In this document: in pieces, positions 2,042 to 25,725 of the stretch
How the letters are laid out: each line of letters begins with the position of its first letter
How positions within the stretch are numbered: position 1 is the stretch's first letter
Virus record (IMG/VR): IMGVR_UViG_2703718815_000004
Direction: 5' to 3' (one strand)
Length of the DNA stretch: 34,281 bases
Origin: a virus
Taxonomy: Duplodnaviria > Heunggongvirae > Uroviricota > Caudoviricetes
Notes under the pieces: generated by a model
The model's database searches: none
What the model was told of the DNA's origin: nothing
The model's input: only the letters and a program-made list of their open reading frames with translations
Position numbers and translations under genes: made by a program

Positions 2042-2664
2042 TTTTGAATCACCGTTGTTGCATAGGAATAAATAAAAGGGAGTTTTACATATTTCTGGTC
2101 AATGGCATCTTTCAGAAAATAGCCTATACCATCGCCATACTCTGGTATCTGAATAGAAAAAACGCTGTCCGATACTGTCACACTCACATCAAAAGTGTGC
2201 TGCAACGGCGGGTCTATTCCGTTTTTTCCATGAATGAACCGCGCCACACGTCGCTTTAACCAGTCAATGCAGAAATGCGAACCGTCAGCCTTATAAAAAT
2301 TCCACGTTAATATTCGTTTGAAATAATCATCAGGTACATACGATGCCTGCCCCGGAACGTAATTCCGCATTGCGGCATACGGGATCGTATTGTATTCAAT
2401 GGTATCGTATGCGCCGCGTGCAATAGCCTCCTCGGAAACCTGTAGTAAAGGCCTTTCAACGCCATAAATCCCGAGTGCAATCCAGTCCAGCAATTGCCCG
2501 GTTATTGATTCCGATGTCCAGCATGGCAATGCCAGATTGTTGAGTGAATCGAGGTATTCCTGAGCAATTTCATTGTATGCATCAAAGAACGCAACAACAT
2601 TCGGATCATCTCTGTACTGCACAAATGGATAAGCAGGGAGAATTTTCTCAGTCAGATATTGCAT
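2038..2664 (-). CDS. Baseplate/tail protein (gpI / YmfQ-like position)
   Basis: ORF-track frame 2038..2772; the first ATG with any upstream purine run is at 2664 (the track start is TTG). Stop overlaps the tail fibre start. Call is by synteny (J - I - fibre - Tfa). Confidence 0.5.
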   Translation of the reverse strand: MQYLTEKILPAYPFVQYRDDPNVVAFFDAYNEIAQEYLDSLNNLALPCWTSESITGQLLDWIALGIYGVERPLLQVSEEAIARGAYDTIEYNTIPYAAMRNYVPGQASYVPDDYFKRILTWNFYKADGSHFCIDWLKRRVARFIHGKNGIDPPLQHTFDVSVTVSDSVFSIQIPEYGDGIGYFLKDAIDQKYVKLPFIYSYATTVIQK

Positions 2665-3874
2665 ACTTGTTGACCTGAACCTGTGATGCCACCGTTGAAA
2701 AATAGGAATAGGTATCGCCATAAACCAGGCTTGTGTCTTTCGCCGGAAGAACAATATGGCCGTTAATACCAATGCTCACACTGATTGTTGAGATCAACGT
2801 CGCATCAACCAGCAACCTGACGGAACTGGTAAAAATATCCTGGATACGCAGAAGATTTATCGGGTGTCCGACTTCAATTGAATTGATGTAATCAGCAACG
2901 TTTTGCTGCACAGCCATAGCAATACCCGCCGGATCAACATAATCATCAGACACCGTGTTCCAGGTGATTAGCACCATGACGTTTTGTGATGACGGGATAA
3001 CGAACGGCACCTGATAAACGTCCGGCGAAACGGTTATTGAAACCGTGCGTTTTTCCACTGCCGCACCGGATGGATTGCTTACATCGTTGGTCAGTTTCGA
3101 AATATCCGGTACAGATTTGTAAATCGCATAAGCCACATCATACGGATCACCGCCACCAACAACCGCAACCCATTTCCCCAGCGACGACTGCCGAAAAGAA
3201 ATCAGGTTTTCTCGCACACCGTTTACTGATTTGAGCATCGCTTTAAAGCAATCCGGTGTTCCCTGCACACCAAACATGCCGGACTCCATGACTTCGGCGC
3301 GGTAAGATGCCCACGTTTGCGCCTCCTGACCTGGCATCCCTGCGGTTAGGTTCGTGCATTTTACAGGCTGGTCTTTTGGTACTGATGTAATGACCTGCGT
3401 CACGGTCCCTTCCGGTACAGCCCATGAGCCTGACGTTGTGGCCACACAGTAAACTGGCTCAGTCTGCCCGCTTTCCGGTATCACAGTATCGCGGGAAACC
3501 GCATACTGGTAGTTACCGTCTCCAACCACAAATCCTTTAGGGATACCAAACCCCGGCAACGCCTCAAACACCACGTATACCGCCGTATTTGTACTTAATC
3601 CCTTCTGTGCTCCATAAATGTTTCCGAGTTGCATCAGTAACGGAATATTCGCGCCGTATGGGCTTACGGAGTTAATAAGGTCCACCCGAGCCTGATCTAT
3701 TAATGCCAGCGCCCCGACAGCCGTGCTGGCAAGGTCAGTAATAAGCCCCGCCGGAAGGTTGGCTGTATATCCAGGTACCTTCTCCGCAACTCTGGTGATA
3801 AGATTCGCGAGCAGTTCTTTGGGTGGCGTAGGCTGCGCACCCGCACTGGTCATAGTAATTGGTATTTCTGACAT
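2648..3874 (-). CDS. Baseplate J-like protein (putative)
   Basis: About 408 aa ORF directly upstream of the I-like and tail fibre genes. Size and position match baseplate J of Mu/P2-type tails. ATG at 3874 (track start 3886 is TTG). Confidence 0.5.
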   Translation of the reverse strand: MSEIPITMTSAGAQPTPPKELLANLITRVAEKVPGYTANLPAGLITDLASTAVGALALIDQARVDLINSVSPYGANIPLLMQLGNIYGAQKGLSTNTAVYVVFEALPGFGIPKGFVVGDGNYQYAVSRDTVIPESGQTEPVYCVATTSGSWAVPEGTVTQVITSVPKDQPVKCTNLTAGMPGQEAQTWASYRAEVMESGMFGVQGTPDCFKAMLKSVNGVRENLISFRQSSLGKWVAVVGGGDPYDVAYAIYKSVPDISKLTNDVSNPSGAAVEKRTVSITVSPDVYQVPFVIPSSQNVMVLITWNTVSDDYVDPAGIAMAVQQNVADYINSIEVGHPINLLRIQDIFTSSVRLLVDATLISTISVSIGINGHIVLPAKDTSLVYGDTYSYFSTVASQVQVNKYAISD

Positions 3875-3895
3875 AATTAATCTCAAGAGGATTTT

Positions 3896-4444
3896 ATGAA
3901 ATTTTACTCATTAGGGATTTTGATTAGCTCACTGCTATTTTCTGGTGTTTCTCATGCAATTGATGCCACAGAGAGAATGAATGACATTCAACAGTTCGGT
4001 AAATGGTATTATGCTGAGTTTACCATGCCTACCACTATGGCTTATCGTATTGGTGTTGAATCCAAATTGCCGCAGGATAAATCAACTTTATTTATTGATA
4101 TATCACCATTAACTCAATGTGAGCCCGGTGATGTAACTGTCAATCATTTTATTGGATATAAACAAATGGATTTACCACCGTTCCTTCCTGTAAGTTATAA
4201 AATCAGTGGACAACAAAAGCAGGACTCTATAACAACCCCATCTATCAATGAAGGTTACTTGTTCAGTCCTATTAGCTCATTAAAGATTAGTGATTTGTTA
4301 AAAGCTAAAGGGAAAGGCAGCTTTTCTTTTTGGTACACTCCGCCAGCTGAAAGCAAAGAAAAACCACAAAAACTATTCTTCCCATTAGATGGCCTCCCGG
4401 AAGCATATAAAGCTGCAATCAATTCCTGTAAAGAAAACATGTAA
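3896..4444 (+). CDS. Secreted protein of unknown function (moron)
   Basis: 182 aa with a clear N-terminal signal peptide (MKFYSLGILISSLLFSGVSHA). AAGAGGA Shine-Dalgarno sits 5 nt upstream. AT-rich, and on the opposite strand to the flanking tail genes. Confidence 0.65.
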   Translation: MKFYSLGILISSLLFSGVSHAIDATERMNDIQQFGKWYYAEFTMPTTMAYRIGVESKLPQDKSTLFIDISPLTQCEPGDVTVNHFIGYKQMDLPPFLPVSYKISGQQKQDSITTPSINEGYLFSPISSLKISDLLKAKGKGSFSFWYTPPAESKEKPQKLFFPLDGLPEAYKAAINSCKENM

Positions 4445-4462
4445 AATCAGGCGGTGATATTT

Positions 4463-4927
4463 ATGAAATTGAAATTTTTATCCCTACTTCTTTTTGTGAG
4501 TTTTTCTTCACACTCATCTAACATATCAAGAATAATATGTAAGCCATCTAATAGCAACGGCACCGCAACCTCCGCAATCTGGCCCCAACCTTACCTTTTA
4601 AATGATAAATTATGCTTTGATATTAGAATTGATTCTGGAAATGCATGTGTTGCCGATGGTAAAACAACAACGTGGTTTACTGAATCAGTAATTATAATGC
4701 AAAACAACGAATCATTAGGCCGTGATGATACTTGGTTTAGAGTCAATCGCCCAACAATTAATGACCTACGTATAGCATATACTGTCGAGGCATCTAGGGA
4801 TAAAGTTAATTGGATTCCTCAATCTCACGTAACTATTAATCGGATTTCTGGAGAAGCTATTGATTGGGCGATTTTTGAACACGGCGGAACGTCTTACCAG
4901 TGCCATCTTGAGGGCAAAAAGATATGA
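4463..4927 (+). CDS. Secreted protein of unknown function (moron)
   Basis: ATG at 4463 gives MKLKFLSLLLFVSFSSHS (signal-peptide-like); 4 Cys in the mature part. Lies 19 nt after the previous gene; AT-rich. Confidence 0.6.
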   Translation: MKLKFLSLLLFVSFSSHSSNISRIICKPSNSNGTATSAIWPQPYLLNDKLCFDIRIDSGNACVADGKTTTWFTESVIIMQNNESLGRDDTWFRVNRPTINDLRIAYTVEASRDKVNWIPQSHVTINRISGEAIDWAIFEHGGTSYQCHLEGKKI

Positions 4928-5012
4928 TGCACTATCATTAAATTGACTACGGCATCCAACTCTGGCTACAATCCGAACTGAGGCGTCGAAACCTCTTACA
5001 AGCGGTACGCAA

Positions 5013-5039
5013 CCAACCCCGTCAGTGTTGGATTTTTTA
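5013..5039 (+). terminator. Weak candidate intrinsic terminator after the plus-strand secreted-protein genes
   Basis: 5-bp stem ccaac/gttgg with a 9-nt loop, followed by ATTTTTTAT. Confidence 0.3.
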
Positions 5040-5054
5040 TGCCTATTTTTTCAG

Positions 5055-5077
5055 TGGTTGCATCATGTGCAACCACA
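5055..5077. promoter_or_regulatory. Perfect 9-bp inverted repeat (gtggttgca-N5-tgcaaccac), candidate operator
   Basis: Read directly from the sequence. Lies about 130 nt upstream of the antirepressor gene; no U-tract on either side, so not a terminator. Confidence 0.3.
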
Positions 5078-5206
5078 TCCCCGATCAATGTCGGGAGGGC
5101 GACGAATACAACACCCGAAAGGGGAATAAGTCCGCGGTACTTGTAGCCGTTTCGAACCTCCCGACACCACTTTGGTTCTTCTTCGAAAAAGATACAAGAG
5201 GTTACT

Positions 5207-5764
5207 ATGACCATCCAACTGATTCCCGTTTTCAGCGGAACTACCTCAAACGAAACTGTCCTTCTATGCAATGCACGTGATTTACACGATTTTCTTGAAG
5301 TAGGAAAAGTGTTTGCAGCCTGGATTAACGCTCGCATTGAAGAGTATGGATTCGAAGAAAATAAGGATTTTGTAGTTTTTTCCAATTCTGGAAAAAATAG
5401 CGTAGGCCGCCGCCGCAAGGACTACCACCTCACCCTGGACACCGCCAAAGAGCTGGCTATGGTCGAACGCAACGAAAAAGGCCGCCAGATCCGCCGATAC
5501 TTCATCGAGTGCGAGAAGAAACTACGCGAAGAAACTACCAGCACACAACCCCCTCTGAATGTTGACATCATCATGCGCGTCAGAAACGGATCGGTTACCC
5601 ACATTGAGCACCACAAATCAGGCTCAGTTATAACCACAGAATGGGCAATTCACTTACTACGCAAAAGTGGATGGATTGTCATGCCACGCGATGAACTTCT
5701 TAATACGCCACTGGCCCAACTGATGCCCGAAAATTTGACTCAAACCGGAACCTGCGTCCGGTAA
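5207..5764 (+). CDS. Phage antirepressor (AntA/AntB-type domain)
   Basis: 185 aa. Segments VFAAWINARIEEYGFEENKDFVVF and HLTLDTAKELAMVERNEKGRQIRRYFIECEKKL match the AntA/AntB antirepressor family pattern as I recall it. Confidence 0.7.
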   Translation: MTIQLIPVFSGTTSNETVLLCNARDLHDFLEVGKVFAAWINARIEEYGFEENKDFVVFSNSGKNSVGRRRKDYHLTLDTAKELAMVERNEKGRQIRRYFIECEKKLREETTSTQPPLNVDIIMRVRNGSVTHIEHHKSGSVITTEWAIHLLRKSGWIVMPRDELLNTPLAQLMPENLTQTGTCVR

Positions 5765-6087
5765 CTTGTTCCGTTAAAAAACACAACATCGATGTTATAG
5801 GTGGGGTTCTCTGCCCCATCTACTTTTGAAATTGCCAGCGATGCAAAATACCCGGCATACTGTTGCTGCACCATGTTCACATAGTAGTCCGGGTAAATCT
5901 GCTGCACGATACACTGCTGCGCTGGAATGCCGTAATTCGCGTAAAACGGCGACTCCCCCAACCCCAGCTTTAACGTCTGAATGAGCGTCGTCAGCCAGCC
6001 GTAGGAGAAATCACCGTTGCCGTCAGATTCTACTGCAACCCATTTTTTGTTGCCGTTCGCGTCGGTGACGCGGCCCCATGTTCTCAT
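5740..6087 (-). CDS. Hypothetical protein; possible baseplate wedge (W/gp25-like) by position only
   Basis: 115 aa ORF. Size and position between the spike-like gene and the J-like gene fit a W-type protein; no motif confirmed. Confidence 0.4.
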   Translation of the reverse strand: MRTWGRVTDANGNKKWVAVESDGNGDFSYGWLTTLIQTLKLGLGESPFYANYGIPAQQCIVQQIYPDYYVNMVQQQYAGYFASLAISKVDGAENPTYNIDVVFFNGTSYRTQVPV

Positions 6088-6090
6088 GCG

Positions 6091-6255
6091 TCAACCTTTC
6101 AAGTAAATTAGGGTTCCGGTAACCAGAGCGGTGCAAATGATCCACGCTACTGGAGTCAGAATATGCCGAATACCCCGACATACTGCGATTATTCTCGCAG
6201 CCTTATCAGCCCCTTGTGGGGTTGTCTCAGCCTTAAGAATCAGTTCGCTATCCAT
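6091..6255 (-). CDS. Small membrane protein (54 aa), hypothetical
   Basis: Own translation: MDSELILKAETTPQGADKAARIIAVCRGIRHILTPVAWIICTALVTGTLIYLKG, with a C-terminal hydrophobic helix. Start overlaps the upstream stop (ATGGATAG); ends 4 nt before the next ORF. Below the ORF-track size cutoff. Confidence 0.3.
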   Translation of the reverse strand: MDSELILKAETTPQGADKAARIIAVCRGIRHILTPVAWIICTALVTGTLIYLKG

Positions 6256-6442
6256 TTAGAACCTTTATGATCTCTGCGATTCCCGGAAGAGATTTAGCAA
6301 CAGCAAACCCTCCGATAACTATAAGAACTGCATAAAACATTCTTCTCAGAACCGGACTTCTTTCGAGCAATTTTAGAGCTTCCACAATCCAGTCTCCTCC
6401 GCTAAAATTAATCACGGAAGACCTCCAAACATACGTAATCAT
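6248..6442 (-). CDS. Small membrane protein (64 aa), hypothetical
   Basis: ATG at 6442 (track start 6457 is TTG). Hydrophobic segment MFYAVLIVIGGFAVA. Confidence 0.35.
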   Translation of the reverse strand: MITYVWRSSVINFSGGDWIVEALKLLERSPVLRRMFYAVLIVIGGFAVAKSLPGIAEIIKVLNG

Positions 6443-6472
6443 CCCTTGCTTATTCAAGGTCAGAAACAGAAA

Positions 6473-6510
6473 ACCCCGACTGGGCCAACAGTCGGGGTTT
6501 TCGTTTTATC
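6473..6510. terminator. Intrinsic terminator hairpin (10-bp stem accccgactg/cagtcggggt, 6-nt loop)
   Basis: T-rich on both sides (plus: TTTCGTTTTA; minus: TTTCTGTTTCT), so potentially bidirectional. Confidence 0.5.
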
Positions 6511-6689
6511 TGGTTTAAATCAGGCTTATCAGTTTCCACGCAAGCATAATCACGCAGATACTGGCAACAACATGCCAAAGGATTCGACAGATATCTTTGG
6601 GGGTTACATTAACGATCTCCATCGCAACTCCTAGTATTCTGAGTTTCAATTTACTATTCTTGATCTGCACAAAATCGACACCCGTTTCG

Positions 6690-6730
6690 ATTCATACAAA
6701 AAGCCCCGACTGCTGCAACAGTTCGGGGCT
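6690..6730 (-). terminator. Intrinsic terminator downstream of the baseplate-spike-like gene
   Basis: Stem agccccga(c)tg / cagttcggggct with one bulge, followed on the minus strand by TTTTTGTAT. Near-copy of the hairpin at 6473-6510. Confidence 0.55.
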
Positions 6731-6770
6731 TTCGCTTTATGGATAGAATTTAAAGTGAAATGAACCGGTA

Positions 6771-7484
6771 TTAACCAAGATTTGGTTTCTTCGACGTGAT
6801 CGTACTGCCACCGCTTTGAACGCCAGTCACATCGTGGCTGTGGCCGCTGACGCTCACGCCGTTGATAACTGCATCCATCTCGACATTAAGAGGACCAATC
6901 AGCGAAGCGGTTGTATCCTTCATCTGGGCTTTGTCCTGGACGATCGGTCCGTTGAGGTGAATTTTCCCGTTCAGGAAAATATCTTCAGCCTCGAGGTAAA
7001 CAGCTTTCGACTTTTGCCTGATTTCTTCCGGAGCCACCGTTACCGAGCTACTGCCGTCCTCTGTTTTGAGGATCGCGCCATCCGGACCGTACAAAACGAT
7101 TTTTTGCGGATCTTCGTCGGACCAGTCCTTGTTTGCCAGTGGCACGAAAAACAGGGGAGTGAGCGACATCGAGTATGAAAGCGTTGCCATACCGGTTCCC
7201 AATCCGGACACACCGCGCAGTGATACATCAGCGGCAATTGTTACTCCTCGATCGCCCGGCTGTATCGGGTAACGAATATACGGGAATGTGGCGACAGGGA
7301 TTGTTATCTGCGGAAAGTTGATCCCCTCTGGCAACATATCAAACTGAACGGTCACTATCTGCCCACTGACATCGACAACATGGCAGGGCAATTCGCGTCC
7401 TTTAAGCTCGGCTTGCTGGTTGCCAGAACTGGTCATCATCTCCGACAGCGTTCGGAGAAACGGTAATTTTTGAGCGTTTGACAT
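6771..7484 (-). CDS. Baseplate spike/V-like protein (putative)
   Basis: 237 aa; position after the hub-like gene; C-terminal Gly/Ser/His-rich tip (GVSVSGHSHDVTGVQSGG). Confidence 0.5.
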   Translation of the reverse strand: MSNAQKLPFLRTLSEMMTSSGNQQAELKGRELPCHVVDVSGQIVTVQFDMLPEGINFPQITIPVATFPYIRYPIQPGDRGVTIAADVSLRGVSGLGTGMATLSYSMSLTPLFFVPLANKDWSDEDPQKIVLYGPDGAILKTEDGSSSVTVAPEEIRQKSKAVYLEAEDIFLNGKIHLNGPIVQDKAQMKDTTASLIGPLNVEMDAVINGVSVSGHSHDVTGVQSGGSTITSKKPNLG

Positions 7485-23821: not shown

Positions 23822-24073
23822 TTAGTCCTGATTTTTATCCACCCTGAGTAGTTCGCGCAGGGCAAAGGCATCCCCTTTTCTGGCAAGCTTAAACAATGCC
23901 GCCCGTAGCTCGGCTTCACCTTTCGCTCTGCCCTTACGGATGGACGCATAAAAATTTGTCATTGCTTCCCGATTTTCTTTCAGTCGGTTCAGATCAACAT
24001 CCAGAACGTCAGCGATTTGTTGTGCAGTCATCCGGCACGCTGCCAGAGACTCGACTTTCGAATACGGAATCAT
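23822..24073 (-). CDS. Small hypothetical protein upstream of the terminase genes
   Basis: 83 aa; GGGGGTG Shine-Dalgarno upstream of the ATG at 24073; overlaps the 3' end of the upstream gene. Confidence 0.4.
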   Translation of the reverse strand: MIPYSKVESLAACRMTAQQIADVLDVDLNRLKENREAMTNFYASIRKGRAKGEAELRAALFKLARKGDAFALRELLRVDKNQD

Positions 24074-24941
24074 TTGTCACCCCCATTGATATGCAGGGTG
24101 TCTTCTTCCTGTATTTTTCGTGAATGATTTTTACTGCAGCGTTGTTCCAGGTGACCTGATGGTGAATGCGTTTATGGCTGGCGCCCATCAGGGATATTTT
24201 TACGCACGACGGCGCATACATGACGGAGTAAAAACTTTTAACGTAGGTTCCGGAATCCAGATACAGTTCGGTCATTCCGCCGCTGTTTTTCTGCGTCTGT
24301 TTCTGCCCTAACTGGACAGCACCAATCGTCATAAACAACTCACCACGGCGACCGAGATTCGTGTACGTATTCACATCCTCGTTAATGCGCCCCATGAATG
24401 AGAACGGTCGATCAACCGAACAGATAAAGCTGTTCATTGCCTTGCGTTTCACCCACGAAGCATGGCCGCCATTGTCACCAAGAAAATCCCCGCCCTGCGA
24501 CATAGCGATGGAAAGAGCAGGTATTGATTCGTAGTACGCCAGCATTTCAGAAAGGATCGCATCCAGTTTCCTTATCGGAAAATAGGCCTGGTCATAGTTG
24601 CGATCCACCCGAAACTGGAACTCGTGATAATCATCATCGAGCTGAATGAAGTATTGACACCCGACCAGTTTTGCCAGGTCGAAACAGGCATTACGGGCGT
24701 AAAAAATTGAGCGGCGGTCACAGAAATTATCGGCTTCGTCAAAACGACTGGCGATATCGGCTTTGGAAAACACCAGCACCTGTTCACCAAATTCAGCTAT
24801 GTATTGATGCCATGTCTTATCTTCATCATCAACAACGATAAAAATTTTCCCGGTATAGCCAGCACGACGCAACGTCCGGTAAGTCAGAACTTTGTCCGGT
24901 CGCCCGTGAGTCAGAATAAAGGCGCAAAAATCATCACGCAT
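24009..24941 (-). CDS. GT-A-fold glycosyltransferase-like protein (hypothetical; two DXD-type motifs)
   Basis: Segments FILTHGRPDKV...KIFIVVDDEDK and YFIQLDDDYHEF resemble Rossmann-like nucleotide-sugar transferase motifs. Start is either 24941 (GGAGGAGGAGGA upstream) or 24962. Motif-level inference only. Confidence 0.45.
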   Translation of the reverse strand: MRDDFCAFILTHGRPDKVLTYRTLRRAGYTGKIFIVVDDEDKTWHQYIAEFGEQVLVFSKADIASRFDEADNFCDRRSIFYARNACFDLAKLVGCQYFIQLDDDYHEFQFRVDRNYDQAYFPIRKLDAILSEMLAYYESIPALSIAMSQGGDFLGDNGGHASWVKRKAMNSFICSVDRPFSFMGRINEDVNTYTNLGRRGELFMTIGAVQLGQKQTQKNSGGMTELYLDSGTYVKSFYSVMYAPSCVKISLMGASHKRIHHQVTWNNAAVKIIHEKYRKKTPCISMGVTNDSVFESRVSGSVPDDCTTNR

Positions 24942-25725
24942 ATTCCTCCTCCTCCCCGCCATGCATGATCTCCACCATACGCTGCGTCATCCGGACAAAT
25001 CCATTTTCGATAGCCTGCTGATAATCAATGATCACCAGCGCCGATTCCTCGAAAAAGCACTGAATTTCAGCGGGGGCGTGAGCGTAATAGTCCGCAATTC
25101 TGCTGAAATTAAACACCGTATGACGTTCTGCCGCACACAGGAGGAATTTCTCAATATCAGGATCAAGGGACGCCGAACGTATCCGGCTGATCAACTCCTG
25201 AGTTTTCGTATCGTCGTACAGTTCACTGATATCTGGTTTATCGCCCGACGGCTCATAAACAGGCGTATCAATTTTCGTCGTGTACGGCTCCTCCTCATTT
25301 CCTGTACCTGGCAAAACATCCGTCAACAATTCATCAATTTCTGTTGAGCTGAATCCTGTCAGGGAGACATCAAAATCAGCATTGATTAGGTCCGACAGCT
25401 CCATCCGCAACAGATCTTCATCCCAGCCAGCATTCATCGGCAGGCGATTATCTGCCAGGCGGTACGCCTTTTTCTGCTCATCCGTCAGGCCAGACAGAAC
25501 AATGACCGGAACAGAATCCATTTTGAGCATTTCAGCCGCCATAACACGACCGTGACCCGCAATAATTTCGCCCTTTTCGTCAATCAGCACCGGATTAGTC
25601 CAGCCGAATTGCTTAATACTTTCTACCAGTTGTACCACCTGCTCAGTACTGTGCGTCCTGGCGTTGTGTGCATACGGAGACAGTTCTTGTAACGGGCGAT
25701 AGACGATCTTCAATTTCTCGCTCAT
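24934..25725 (-). CDS. ParB-like nuclease domain protein (ParB/Srx N-terminal domain)
   Basis: N-terminus KIVYRPLQELSPYAHNARTHSTEQVVQLVESIKQFGWTNPVLIDEKGEIIAGHGRVMAAEML matches the ParB N-terminal domain pattern; GAGG Shine-Dalgarno upstream. Confidence 0.75.
   Translation of the reverse strand: MSEKLKIVYRPLQELSPYAHNARTHSTEQVVQLVESIKQFGWTNPVLIDEKGEIIAGHGRVMAAEMLKMDSVPVIVLSGLTDEQKKAYRLADNRLPMNAGWDEDLLRMELSDLINADFDVSLTGFSSTEIDELLTDVLPGTGNEEEPYTTKIDTPVYEPSGDKPDISELYDDTKTQELISRIRSASLDPDIEKFLLCAAERHTVFNFSRIADYYAHAPAEIQCFFEESALVIIDYQQAIENGFVRMTQRMVEIMHGGEEEEYA

Follow-up and report, generated by a model that had tools for sequence, protein, structure and literature searches.

An accessory island of mixed origin in the baseplate operon of a Rac-SA53-type prophage, and a c4-like RNA leader that appears to gate its antirepressor

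What are three opposite-strand genes doing in the middle of a phage baseplate operon, and what controls them? The question is raised by a 34,281-nucleotide stretch of DNA from a tailed phage (Caudoviricetes; IMG/VR record IMGVR_UViG_2703718815_000004), here called the window and always meant at its full length, in which a long run of minus-strand tail genes is interrupted by two plus-strand genes for exported proteins and a third for an antirepressor. I use P1 for the product of the open reading frame (ORF) at 3896-4444, P2 for that of the ORF at 4463-4927 and Ant for the antirepressor encoded at 5207-5764; the phages P1 and P7, which also enter the argument, are a separate matter and are always named as phages. 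The block truly interrupts the baseplate operon, as had been seen in an earlier reading made by a model from the letters alone (the sequence-only reading) and as the ORF table confirms; that reading's observation thus stands, and its interpretation, a moron block of possible lysogenic-conversion factors beside an antirepressor with a palindromic operator, is partly supported. The overall explanation that I consider best, at a probability of about 0.7, is that a temperate myophage of the Rac-SA53 type carries, within its baseplate operon, an accessory island built of three modules, in which Ant would belong to a c4-type antisense cassette and P1 and P2 would be exported proteins. The placing of Ant in a c4-like antisense cassette is a more valuable result than the part that concerns P1 and P2, and it turns on the main regulatory element, which was missing from the earlier reading: an RNA of the sRNA-Xcc1 family with two-site complementarity to the ribosome-binding region of Ant.

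This RNA gives a full-length, 78-bit match to sRNA-Xcc1 (RF02221), the small RNA (sRNA) described in Xanthomonas campestris, and both the loop of its second hairpin (a') and its joiner (b') are complementary to two pairs of short sites in the Ant leader, b1 and a1 upstream of the RNA and b2 and a2 downstream of it, the latter reaching into the Ant Shine-Dalgarno sequence (Table 1). What carries the argument is that this complementarity to both site pairs covaries across many phages. The RNA lies in the same-strand leader, between promoter-like site and antirepressor gene, in the window and in eight related loci; wherever this slot (the place in the baseplate operon that the block occupies) holds an intact Ant-type gene, the motif precedes it by 25-41 nt, and it also stands upstream of a Salmonella Bro-N gene and of two successive genes in the Stx phage TL-2011c. 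Read side by side, the a' loops and the a2 sites just 5' of the downstream Shine-Dalgarno sequence change in a compensatory manner, from CTTGTA and TACAAG in the window to CTTTTGG and CCAAAAG in a Citrobacter locus (L018), TGTTTGT and ACAAACA in L003, TCGTGAA and TTCACGA in L004, and CTTTGAAG and CTTCAAAG in the second copy of TL-2011c; changes in the b' joiner are likewise matched, with TTCGAA facing TTCGAA in the window and TTCGAG facing CTCGAA in TL-2011c.

Table 1. Coordinates of the features discussed, in window positions
Feature	Position	Strand	Detail or basis
Baseplate J/gp47-type wedge gene, left flank	2648-3886	-	Pfam Baseplate_J E 5e-8; phrog_6 baseplate wedge subunit
Candidate extended -10 for P1 (TGaCATAAT)	3869-3877	+	Read from sequence; overlaps J start codon; weak
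P1 gene	3896-4444	+	182 aa; ORF table
P2 gene	4463-4927	+	154 aa from ATG; alternative GTG start at 4454 gives 157 aa
Sigma-70 promoter-like site (TTGACT-18-TACAAT)	4943-4972	+	Promoter scan, 10/12 matches
Upstream sites b1 (TCGAA, 4986-4990) and a1 (TACAAG, 4997-5002)	4986-5002	+	Complementary to RNA joiner and second loop
Terminator/attenuator hairpin (CCAAC/GTTGG and T-run TTTTTTAT)	5013-5040	+	Sequence; covariation in 45 cassettes
Perfect 9-bp inverted repeat, GTGGTTGCA N5 TGCAACCAC	5054-5062/5068-5076	.	Inverted-repeat search
sRNA-Xcc1 family RNA (RF02221)	5090-5173	+	84 nt; Rfam 78.1 bits vs gathering 53, E 6e-14, model positions 1-87
RNA closing stem (followed by 3' tail ACCAC)	5090-5098/5157-5165		Part of sRNA-Xcc1 RNA
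RNA a' loop (CTTGTA)	5140-5145		Part of sRNA-Xcc1 RNA
RNA b' joiner (TTCGAA)	5151-5156		Part of sRNA-Xcc1 RNA
Target sites b2 (TTCGAA, 5182-5187) and a2 (TACAAG, 5193-5198)	5182-5201	+	Overlap Ant Shine-Dalgarno AAGAGG, 5196-5201
Ant start codon	5207	+
Ant gene, AntA/AntB-type antirepressor	5207-5764	+	185 aa; Pfam AntA
Conserved 115-aa gene, right flank	5740-6087	-	gp25/W-type baseplate position only
ORF noted with the ADP-ribosyltransferase-like ORF	27630-28112	-
ADP-ribosyltransferase-like ORF	28123-28848	-	241 aa
ORF6N-domain gene	29249-29809	-	Downstream gene of canonical cassette
C4 antisense RNA (RF01695, clan CL00128)	29856-29937	-	59.8 bits
c4-a1b1/isrK	29963-30050	-	Part of canonical cassette
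ORF noted with the ADP-ribosyltransferase-like ORF	30070-30612	-

The same relation holds at a larger scale, in 98 non-identical sRNA-Xcc1 instances from viral contigs that were found with a pattern lying wholly inside hairpin 1. The mean energy of the duplex between the RNA and its target is -25.1 kcal/mol for cognate and -16.7 kcal/mol for non-cognate combinations (p 8e-29, n=70), and each site pair carries the effect by itself, the downstream sites with -17.2 against -11.6 kcal/mol and the upstream sites with -22.3 against -17.4 kcal/mol (p 6e-22). In 80% of the elements hairpin 2 perfectly matches at least 6 nt of the pre-start region of its own element, compared with 13% for non-cognate regions, and the target site ends a median of 9 nt before the start codon, that is, over the ribosome-binding site. 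In these contigs the RNA is followed by a start codon at a median distance of 40 nt, and in about 53 of 60 non-redundant cases the downstream gene is of an antirepressor class (KilA-N 13, AntA 10, Bro-N 10, ORF6N 7, Rha 7, P22_AR_N 6). After the closing stem the RNA ends in N-CC(A/C) in 63 of 92 elements and directly in CCA in 19 more, a tRNA-like 3' end. Two sets of multiple copies may be recorded beside these counts: TL-2011c (L008) carries two tandem sRNA-Xcc1 cassettes, at 2108-2523 and 2647-3402, the first of which precedes a truncated 94-residue AntA-like ORF, and Xylella fastidiosa Temecula1 carries five copies at a spacing of about 385 nt between 1,313,466 and 1,315,082, with C4, isrK and sRNA-Xcc1 side by side in another Xylella strain (PMC12189769).

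Is the neighbourhood of Ant incidental, and is sRNA-Xcc1 a free-standing, trans-acting sRNA directed at host (virulence) genes, as has been suggested for Xanthomonas and Xylella? In X. campestris it was described as a discrete 88-nt RNA with many predicted targets, and the homologous RNA of the enterohaemorrhagic Escherichia coli (EHEC) strain EDL933, with 40,293 reads and a ribosome coverage of 0.02, comparable to C4, is among the most abundant untranslated RNAs of that strain, both of which would suit such a role. However, an RNA whose median position is 40 nt upstream of a gene that is mostly of antirepressor class, and whose variable loop pairs much better with the pre-start site of its own element than with those of others, does not look like a bystander, and host targets would not covary in this way. 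I therefore regard a purely host-directed role as very improbable, yet the two readings are compatible with each other.

The leader in which the RNA sits has further parts that point in the same direction. Homology to the ant region of Stx phages begins exactly at the promoter-like site, at 4943, and relatives have other good promoters at the same relative position. Next come b1 and a1 and then a hairpin whose stems covary in 45 distinct cassettes (CCAAC/GTTGG, CCGCA/GCGG, TTCAC/GTGAA and CCGCG/CGCGG) around a conserved loop, CCCGNNAG, followed by 6-8 T. A generic terminator scan of 3600-6300 predicted nothing on either strand, having missed this hairpin because its loop is 9 nt long, and it was recognised only through the comparison of related cassettes. 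The sequence-only reading had described it as a weak terminator that separates the secreted pair from the antirepressor; the hairpin is indeed real and conserved, and as a terminator-like signal it is the first after P2 and may also stop P1-P2 transcripts, but it is assigned to the Ant cassette and not to a boundary, because the Ant promoter-like site lies upstream of it and because Stx-phage cassettes that have neither P1 nor P2 keep it. Ant itself, as had been claimed, would be an AntA/AntB-type antirepressor by its Pfam match (AntA, PF08346, which scores 95 bits over residues 22-89 where 27 would suffice, with E 4e-27), to which matches with PHROG anti-repressor families and the annotation 'ant' in Rac-SA53 can be added. 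From 4943 to 5764 the module is a self-contained, portable cassette that it shares with Stx phages.

Between the hairpin and the RNA lies the perfect inverted repeat that had been proposed as the operator of Ant, and a protein such as the prophage repressor might bind it and control the gene at the DNA level, with the hairpin merely insulating Ant from P1-P2. The repeat is as perfect as claimed, although one base away from the position first given (5055-5077); an imperfect GTG...CAC dyad occupies the same place in related cassettes, with a different perfect 9-bp palindrome in one of them (L061), and operator specificities would show changing arms too. Against this, some 80 nt separate the palindrome from the promoter-like site upstream, which places it past the terminator hairpin and inside the transcribed leader, the canonical C4 cassette of the same window has no such palindrome, the supposed insulator is kept in cassettes with no P1 or P2 upstream, and the covarying RNA-RNA complementarity already accounts for translation control. 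The arms do differ in relatives, where they are only partly compensated, and as RNA the palindrome folds into a hairpin of -15.3 kcal/mol. An operator is therefore not supported, and I consider control of this kind improbable; the palindrome may serve as a binding site for a protein or, as an RNA hairpin, influence processing. A search by eye from the palindrome to the start of the RNA found no convincing sigma-70 promoter. A LexA box was also considered for the Ant leader and set aside, no CTGT-N8-ACAG-like site being visible in 4928-5206.

The closest comparison for the cassette is found in the window itself, which carries at 29249-30050 on the minus strand a canonical immI-like cassette in which a promoter is followed by c4-a1b1/isrK and its terminator, then by C4 and, ahead of an ORF6N gene, by complementary sites that cover the ribosome-binding site. 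The Ant module matches it in order, part for part, so that the prophage appears to carry two antisense-RNA-gated antirepressor-type cassettes of different specificity. In the immI region of phages P1 and P7 (c4, icd, ant) the parts again follow one another in the same order, from promoter through to antirepressor gene, and c4 and sRNA-Xcc1 share a closing stem, two hairpins, an N-CC 3' tail and a two-part complementarity through loop and joiner; in those phages c4 pairs with the ant mRNA around its ribosome-binding site and determines heteroimmunity. The differences are that the RNA of the Ant cassette is sRNA-Xcc1 and not C4, that the cassette has no icd-like coupling ORF, a2 directly abutting the Ant Shine-Dalgarno sequence, that the antirepressor is here of AntA type, and that an extra palindromic hairpin lies between terminator and RNA. 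Gifsy-1 of Salmonella (IsrK/orf45/anrP) resembles the cassette in that an intrinsic terminator ends a short leader RNA while read-through gives an mRNA for an antirepressor-type protein; there the short RNA, IsrK, to which an activating role is ascribed, modulates translation of the long one. In the cassette b1, a1 and the hairpin sit where isrK sits in Gifsy-1, but the isrK model gave no match to 4979-5040 and the cassette lacks an orf45-like ORF. The Xanthomonas RNA, which the window RNA matches over its full length, differs in having been described as integron-borne, trans-acting and linked to virulence regulators.

How, then, might Ant be held silent? A constitutive-looking promoter at 4943-4972 would drive the leader, the b1/a1 sites and the terminator hairpin would yield a short decoy RNA, and the sRNA-Xcc1 RNA would be excised from the longer precursor, possibly by RNase P, the enzyme that matures c4; the tRNA-like tail, the discrete 88-nt RNA of Xanthomonas and the abundant untranslated RNA of EDL933 lend this excision indirect support. 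The excised RNA would pair with b2 and a2 and so block translation of Ant in the lysogen; it would also set the specificity of immunity, and the short b1/a1 RNA could titrate it. If this is general, sRNA-Xcc1 would represent a second, widespread class of c4-like immunity RNAs, a portable leader cassette that gates at least six antirepressor-type families in proteobacterial phages and whose two-site specificity would diversify freely, a generalisation to which I give even odds. As far as the searchable literature goes it is apparently unreported: the search yielded no paper that ties sRNA-Xcc1 to c4 or to antirepressor control, and a study of phage APSE records one sRNA-Xcc1 copy upstream of an ORF6N gene and no more. 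Were it true, an RNA that the annotations of thousands of genomes list as a virulence-associated sRNA would gain a concrete mechanism, including in the genomes of EHEC and Stx phages, where antirepressors affect prophage induction and hence toxin release; immunity by antisense RNA, known essentially from phages P1 and P7, would become a general, modular gate on antirepressors; and the covarying pairs of loop and target would amount to a natural set of orthogonal translational repressors.

The remainder of the block has another history, or rather several. At 99% identity the region matches Escherichia phage Rac-SA53, in which the three genes bear the names rac62, rac61 and ant, and a small set of E. 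coli prophages is also close to it; of 5426 complete E. coli genomes, 19 have P1 and 10 have P2. BLAST comparison with related prophages puts the start of the cargo at 3882-3900, the end of the P1 module at 4466 and the start of the Ant module at 4974-4979 in some E. coli prophages and at 4943 relative to Stx phages, and these sharp breakpoints show a mosaic of three modules, P1, P2 and the Ant cassette, with different histories. The distribution in related prophages, one of the checks that the sequence-only reading had proposed, is telling here, with near-identical prophages carrying other cargo, or none, at the same place: among those whose J and W genes are 98-99% identical, the slot holds P1, P2 and Ant; P1 and an N-truncated Ant; a 356-residue protein of the LprI (lysozyme-inhibitor) family on the other strand (ETEC1703); or a 179-residue protein unrelated to P1 (ETEC4067), and all alternative cargo proteins have signal peptides. 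In more distant relatives (Buttiauxella, Salmonella, Citrobacter and metagenomic contigs) it holds P1 alone, P1 with a Bro-N gene, or P1, P2 and Ant with a YafO toxin module, the YafO-toxin pair of the Citrobacter locus L018 lying at 6366-7356 within the slot. The slot is thereby documented as a hot spot where periplasmic proteins accumulate within a baseplate operon, and its contents are candidates for new superinfection-exclusion or envelope-protection functions. Two neighbouring observations concern these relatives: the Buttiauxella prophage L012 has an Hcp-Tlde1 module of the type VI secretion system (T6SS) effector type at 820-2182, after its fibre-assembly gene, and a record deposited as 'Actinobacillus phage vB_Apl-pPE4' (PP818812.1, L002) is 93-97% identical here to E. 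coli prophages, which makes its stated host doubtful.

The cargo is also decaying in some lineages, as two records show, NZ_CP042298.1 (RM9088) and NZ_CM143725.1 (CFIAFB20180540), with the insertion sequence (IS) IS1 in P1 of one genome and IS2 in P2 of the other. A recurrent in-frame deletion, seen in eight loci (L002, L005, L006, L145-L148 and L150), joins window position 4466 to about 5285-5342; it fuses the ATG of P2 to about codon 27 of Ant and removes P2, the whole RNA leader and at least 26 Ant residues, and its product would be a truncated AntA translated from the P2 ribosome-binding site and free of RNA control.

Was it right, then, to call this a block of morons? The composition is unlike that of the surrounding operon, GC being 0.35-0.39 over 3900-4950 and about 0.47-0.55 on either side (so that the first two genes are AT-rich, as had been noted), and P1 has a GC content of 0.36 against 0.50-0.51 in J and W, a contrast repeated in six other loci. 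P2 and Ant come and go as morons should, being missing where the flanks adjoin, as in L012 and L020, in which the 115-residue gene follows directly after P1 with no P2 or Ant between; for P1 this is only partly so, since in L003 and L004 it is replaced by other cargo and not simply missing. The accessory nature and foreign composition of the block are thus borne out, whereas P1 is conserved in the lineage: among related loci it is found in 21, and in all 21 it divergently adjoins baseplate J; J and P1 have drifted apart to about the same extent (J to 56%, P1 to 49-60%), P1 keeping a GC content of 34-37%. P1 is therefore a resident of long standing in the phage lineage, not a chance insertion of recent date. 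P2 gives the opposite impression. In the Citrobacter locus L018 it is 96% identical while P1 is only 68% identical, and homologues are known from genomic islands of Pectobacterium, from Pantoea and from a Raoultella prophage that is not related, and for these reasons P2 moves independently, as a classic moron. In three genomic contexts of Pectobacterium (L009-L011, 5627-6465) a gene for a 113-residue DUF6388 protein lies 33 nt before the P2 homologue, which looks like a conserved gene pair.

That both proteins are secreted and contain cysteines had been predicted, and the alignments agree. By inspection for n-, h- and c-regions and a small-x-small site, the signal peptides read MK + LGILISSLLF + SHA|I in P1 and MKLK + FLSLLLFVSF + SHS|S in P2, with an A-x-A-type cleavage site kept in the homologues of both and a lipobox in neither; the conserved cysteines are C75 and C178 in P1 and C26, C51, C62 and C147 in P2. 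The ratio of nonsynonymous to synonymous substitution rates (dN/dS) is 0.06-0.28 for P1 and, in informative pairs, 0.14-0.36 for P2, and both are real genes under purifying selection. The size of P1 was given correctly at 182 residues, the approximate 155 residues of P2 become 154 from its ATG, and the gap between the genes is 18 nt and not 19. A profile search among 5.8 billion proteins returned 17 clusters of P1 at 90% identity, all close relatives, all of 175-183 residues and all from Enterobacterales, and no P1 was found among the species-representative genomes scanned; an exhaustive search with P2 returned 36 representatives, none pointing to a known family. Neither protein has a match in Pfam, NCBIfam or PADLOC, their only PHROG matches are phrog_31333 and phrog_26680, families with no assigned function, and searches of PDB sequences with both family profiles gave nothing meaningful.

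In structure prediction with Foldseek, another check that had been proposed, the AlphaFold model of P1 has one clear structural relative, IalB of Bartonella (PDB 3dtd), with a Foldseek E of 2e-4 and a TM-score of 0.70, values at which the predicted P1 fold would be that of IalB, and P2 is an orphan, a secreted, four-cysteine, all-beta protein of the disulfide type. The likeness of P1 is one of fold: sequence identity to 3dtd is only 10-16%, P1 has no PDB sequence match to it, and twelve members of the P1 family had no Pfam match to the IalB profile (PF06776 / COG5342) at E<=1. IalB (invasion-associated locus B) was named for its role in host-cell invasion, and IalB-domain proteins are inner-membrane-associated or periplasmic envelope proteins, mainly alphaproteobacterial and chromosomal, unlike the prophage-borne P1.

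What would such proteins do? P1 and P2 would act in the periplasm of the lysogen, and superinfection exclusion, or protection of the envelope against phages with this type of tail, is a tentative proposal for their likeliest role, one that I consider possible, though short of probable. I arrive at it because both are exported and uncoupled from late transcription, because the slot always holds exported proteins, including one of the LprI family, in a phage whose tape measure has an SLT domain, and because P1 is tied to one tail lineage; it is a possibility that P1 is a lineage-locked periplasmic exclusion factor against its own tail type. Morons and exclusion genes of tail modules, such as lambda bor and lom, HK97 gp15, T5 llp and phi80 and N15 cor, are likewise small envelope-directed genes of deviant composition that lie beside or between tail genes, and they are transcribed apart from the late operon, as P1 and P2 may be; they have no likeness to P1 or P2 in sequence or fold, and they are sporadic whereas P1 is conserved in its lineage.

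Two other roles have to be set beside this. The strict linkage of P1 to baseplate J in every related carrier locus, with its roughly parallel divergence, is what one would also expect of a tail or baseplate accessory or assembly protein (P1, possibly P2) that is not expressed in the lysogen, but P1 is encoded on the strand opposite to that of the late operon, its cleavable signal peptide is conserved, its GC content stays at 34-37% in a module of about 50%, and P2 is found outside prophages as well. Moreover, unrelated signal-peptide proteins take the place of P1 where J and W are 98-99% identical; since near-identical prophages replace it in this way, P1 would be dispensable for the virion and not structural, and of all the alternatives raised here I find this one the hardest to believe. 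It is less far-fetched, albeit still unlikely, that P1, P2 or both are orphan immunity proteins against toxins that act in the periplasm (T6SS effectors, colicins, lysozyme-like enzymes), or else host-interaction or virulence factors: both are small and exported, the same slot of ETEC1703 holds the LprI-family protein, the Hcp-Tlde1 module lies nearby in the related Buttiauxella prophage, P2 homologues sit in variable islands, and the very name of IalB recalls invasion. On the other side, neither has a cognate toxin as a neighbour in the window or resembles known immunity families, and the strict link between P1 and the tail lineage would be left unexplained.

Several results count against the explanation as a whole. 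The C4 covariance model had no match to 5090-5173 at E<=1, and 3600-6400 gave only sRNA-Xcc1; the relation to c4 is consequently architectural, homology is not demonstrated, and I count the RNA as an analogue of c4 that stands outside the C4 family. Moreover, a processed RNA need not be involved, since the pairing could act in cis by letting the leader fold in an alternative way. For P1 and P2, the structural models are of moderate confidence (predicted local distance difference test (pLDDT) scores of 70 and 73, falling below 50 at both N-termini) and derive from shallow alignments, IalB itself offers no established molecular function, and library searches brought up no known protein of exclusion, immunity or defence that resembles either of them. 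The search for a P1 promoter gave none that is both convincing and conserved: the candidate extended -10 is confined to the E. coli/Citrobacter clade, distant relatives do not keep it, and it is absent from the promoter scan output. Finally, IS elements disrupt P1 or P2, or P2 and the leader are deleted together, in several genomes, and P1, P2 and the leader are therefore dispensable there.

Around the block, the minus-strand genes run in the order SLT-domain tape measure, hub-like genes, Apex-motif spike, 115-residue gene, block, baseplate J, 208-residue gene, tail fibre and fibre assembly protein. The earlier description of the flanks as J-like and W-like can be kept for J, which has its Pfam match (and no PDB sequence relative), and on the other side only as a label of position: the 115-residue gene has no Pfam gp25/W match (a weak DUF3888 match was the only one) and no PDB sequence match, it belongs to phrog_7986, which has no assigned function, and is 75-99% identical across all related loci, and W appears to be its place in the order V-(W)-J-I-fibre only. 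Its 3' end and that of the convergent Ant overlap by 25 nt. The true start of baseplate J is probably the ATG at 3874, which gives 408 residues, as relatives annotate, and leaves a J-P1 spacer of 21 nt; in that spacer, 3875-3895, the Shine-Dalgarno regions of the divergent J and P1 share one short segment on opposite strands (TCTCAAGAGGA / TCCTCTTGAGA), so that the translation signals of a late gene and an accessory gene overlap. With no terminator predicted on either strand, a late transcript that reaches J would have to cross the whole block antisense. A second variable spot in the baseplate operon lies at 6088-6770, the near-identity to Rac-SA53 stopping at 6087, and there the small ORFs 6091-6255 and 6248-6457, the latter with a hydrophobic segment, differ between otherwise close prophages.

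Elsewhere in the window, three further elements deserve mention. The 241-residue ORF at 28123-28848 on the minus strand has a Pertussis_S1 / Scabin-like / Enterotoxin_a match and would be the A subunit of an ADP-ribosyltransferase resembling ArtA or the pertussis-like toxin of E. coli; a Q-antiterminator-like gene (DUF1133 and Phage_antitermQ) lies upstream of it, which is the place of Stx in Stx phages, and the adjacent 160-residue ORF, which has no Pfam match, could be its B subunit. At 24009-25725, also on the minus strand, two genes overlap, one for a TET-associated glycosyltransferase (TAGT, E 1e-35) and one with a ParB_N domain, a combination that suggests a module for DNA hypermodification. 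A sok antitoxin RNA matches at 32209-32384 on the minus strand with 113 bits, pointing to a hok/sok module in the prophage; sok is also found in L016 (8828-9001) and L017 (6710-6883), and in the Salmonella relatives the hok/sok module lies inside the tail gene region.

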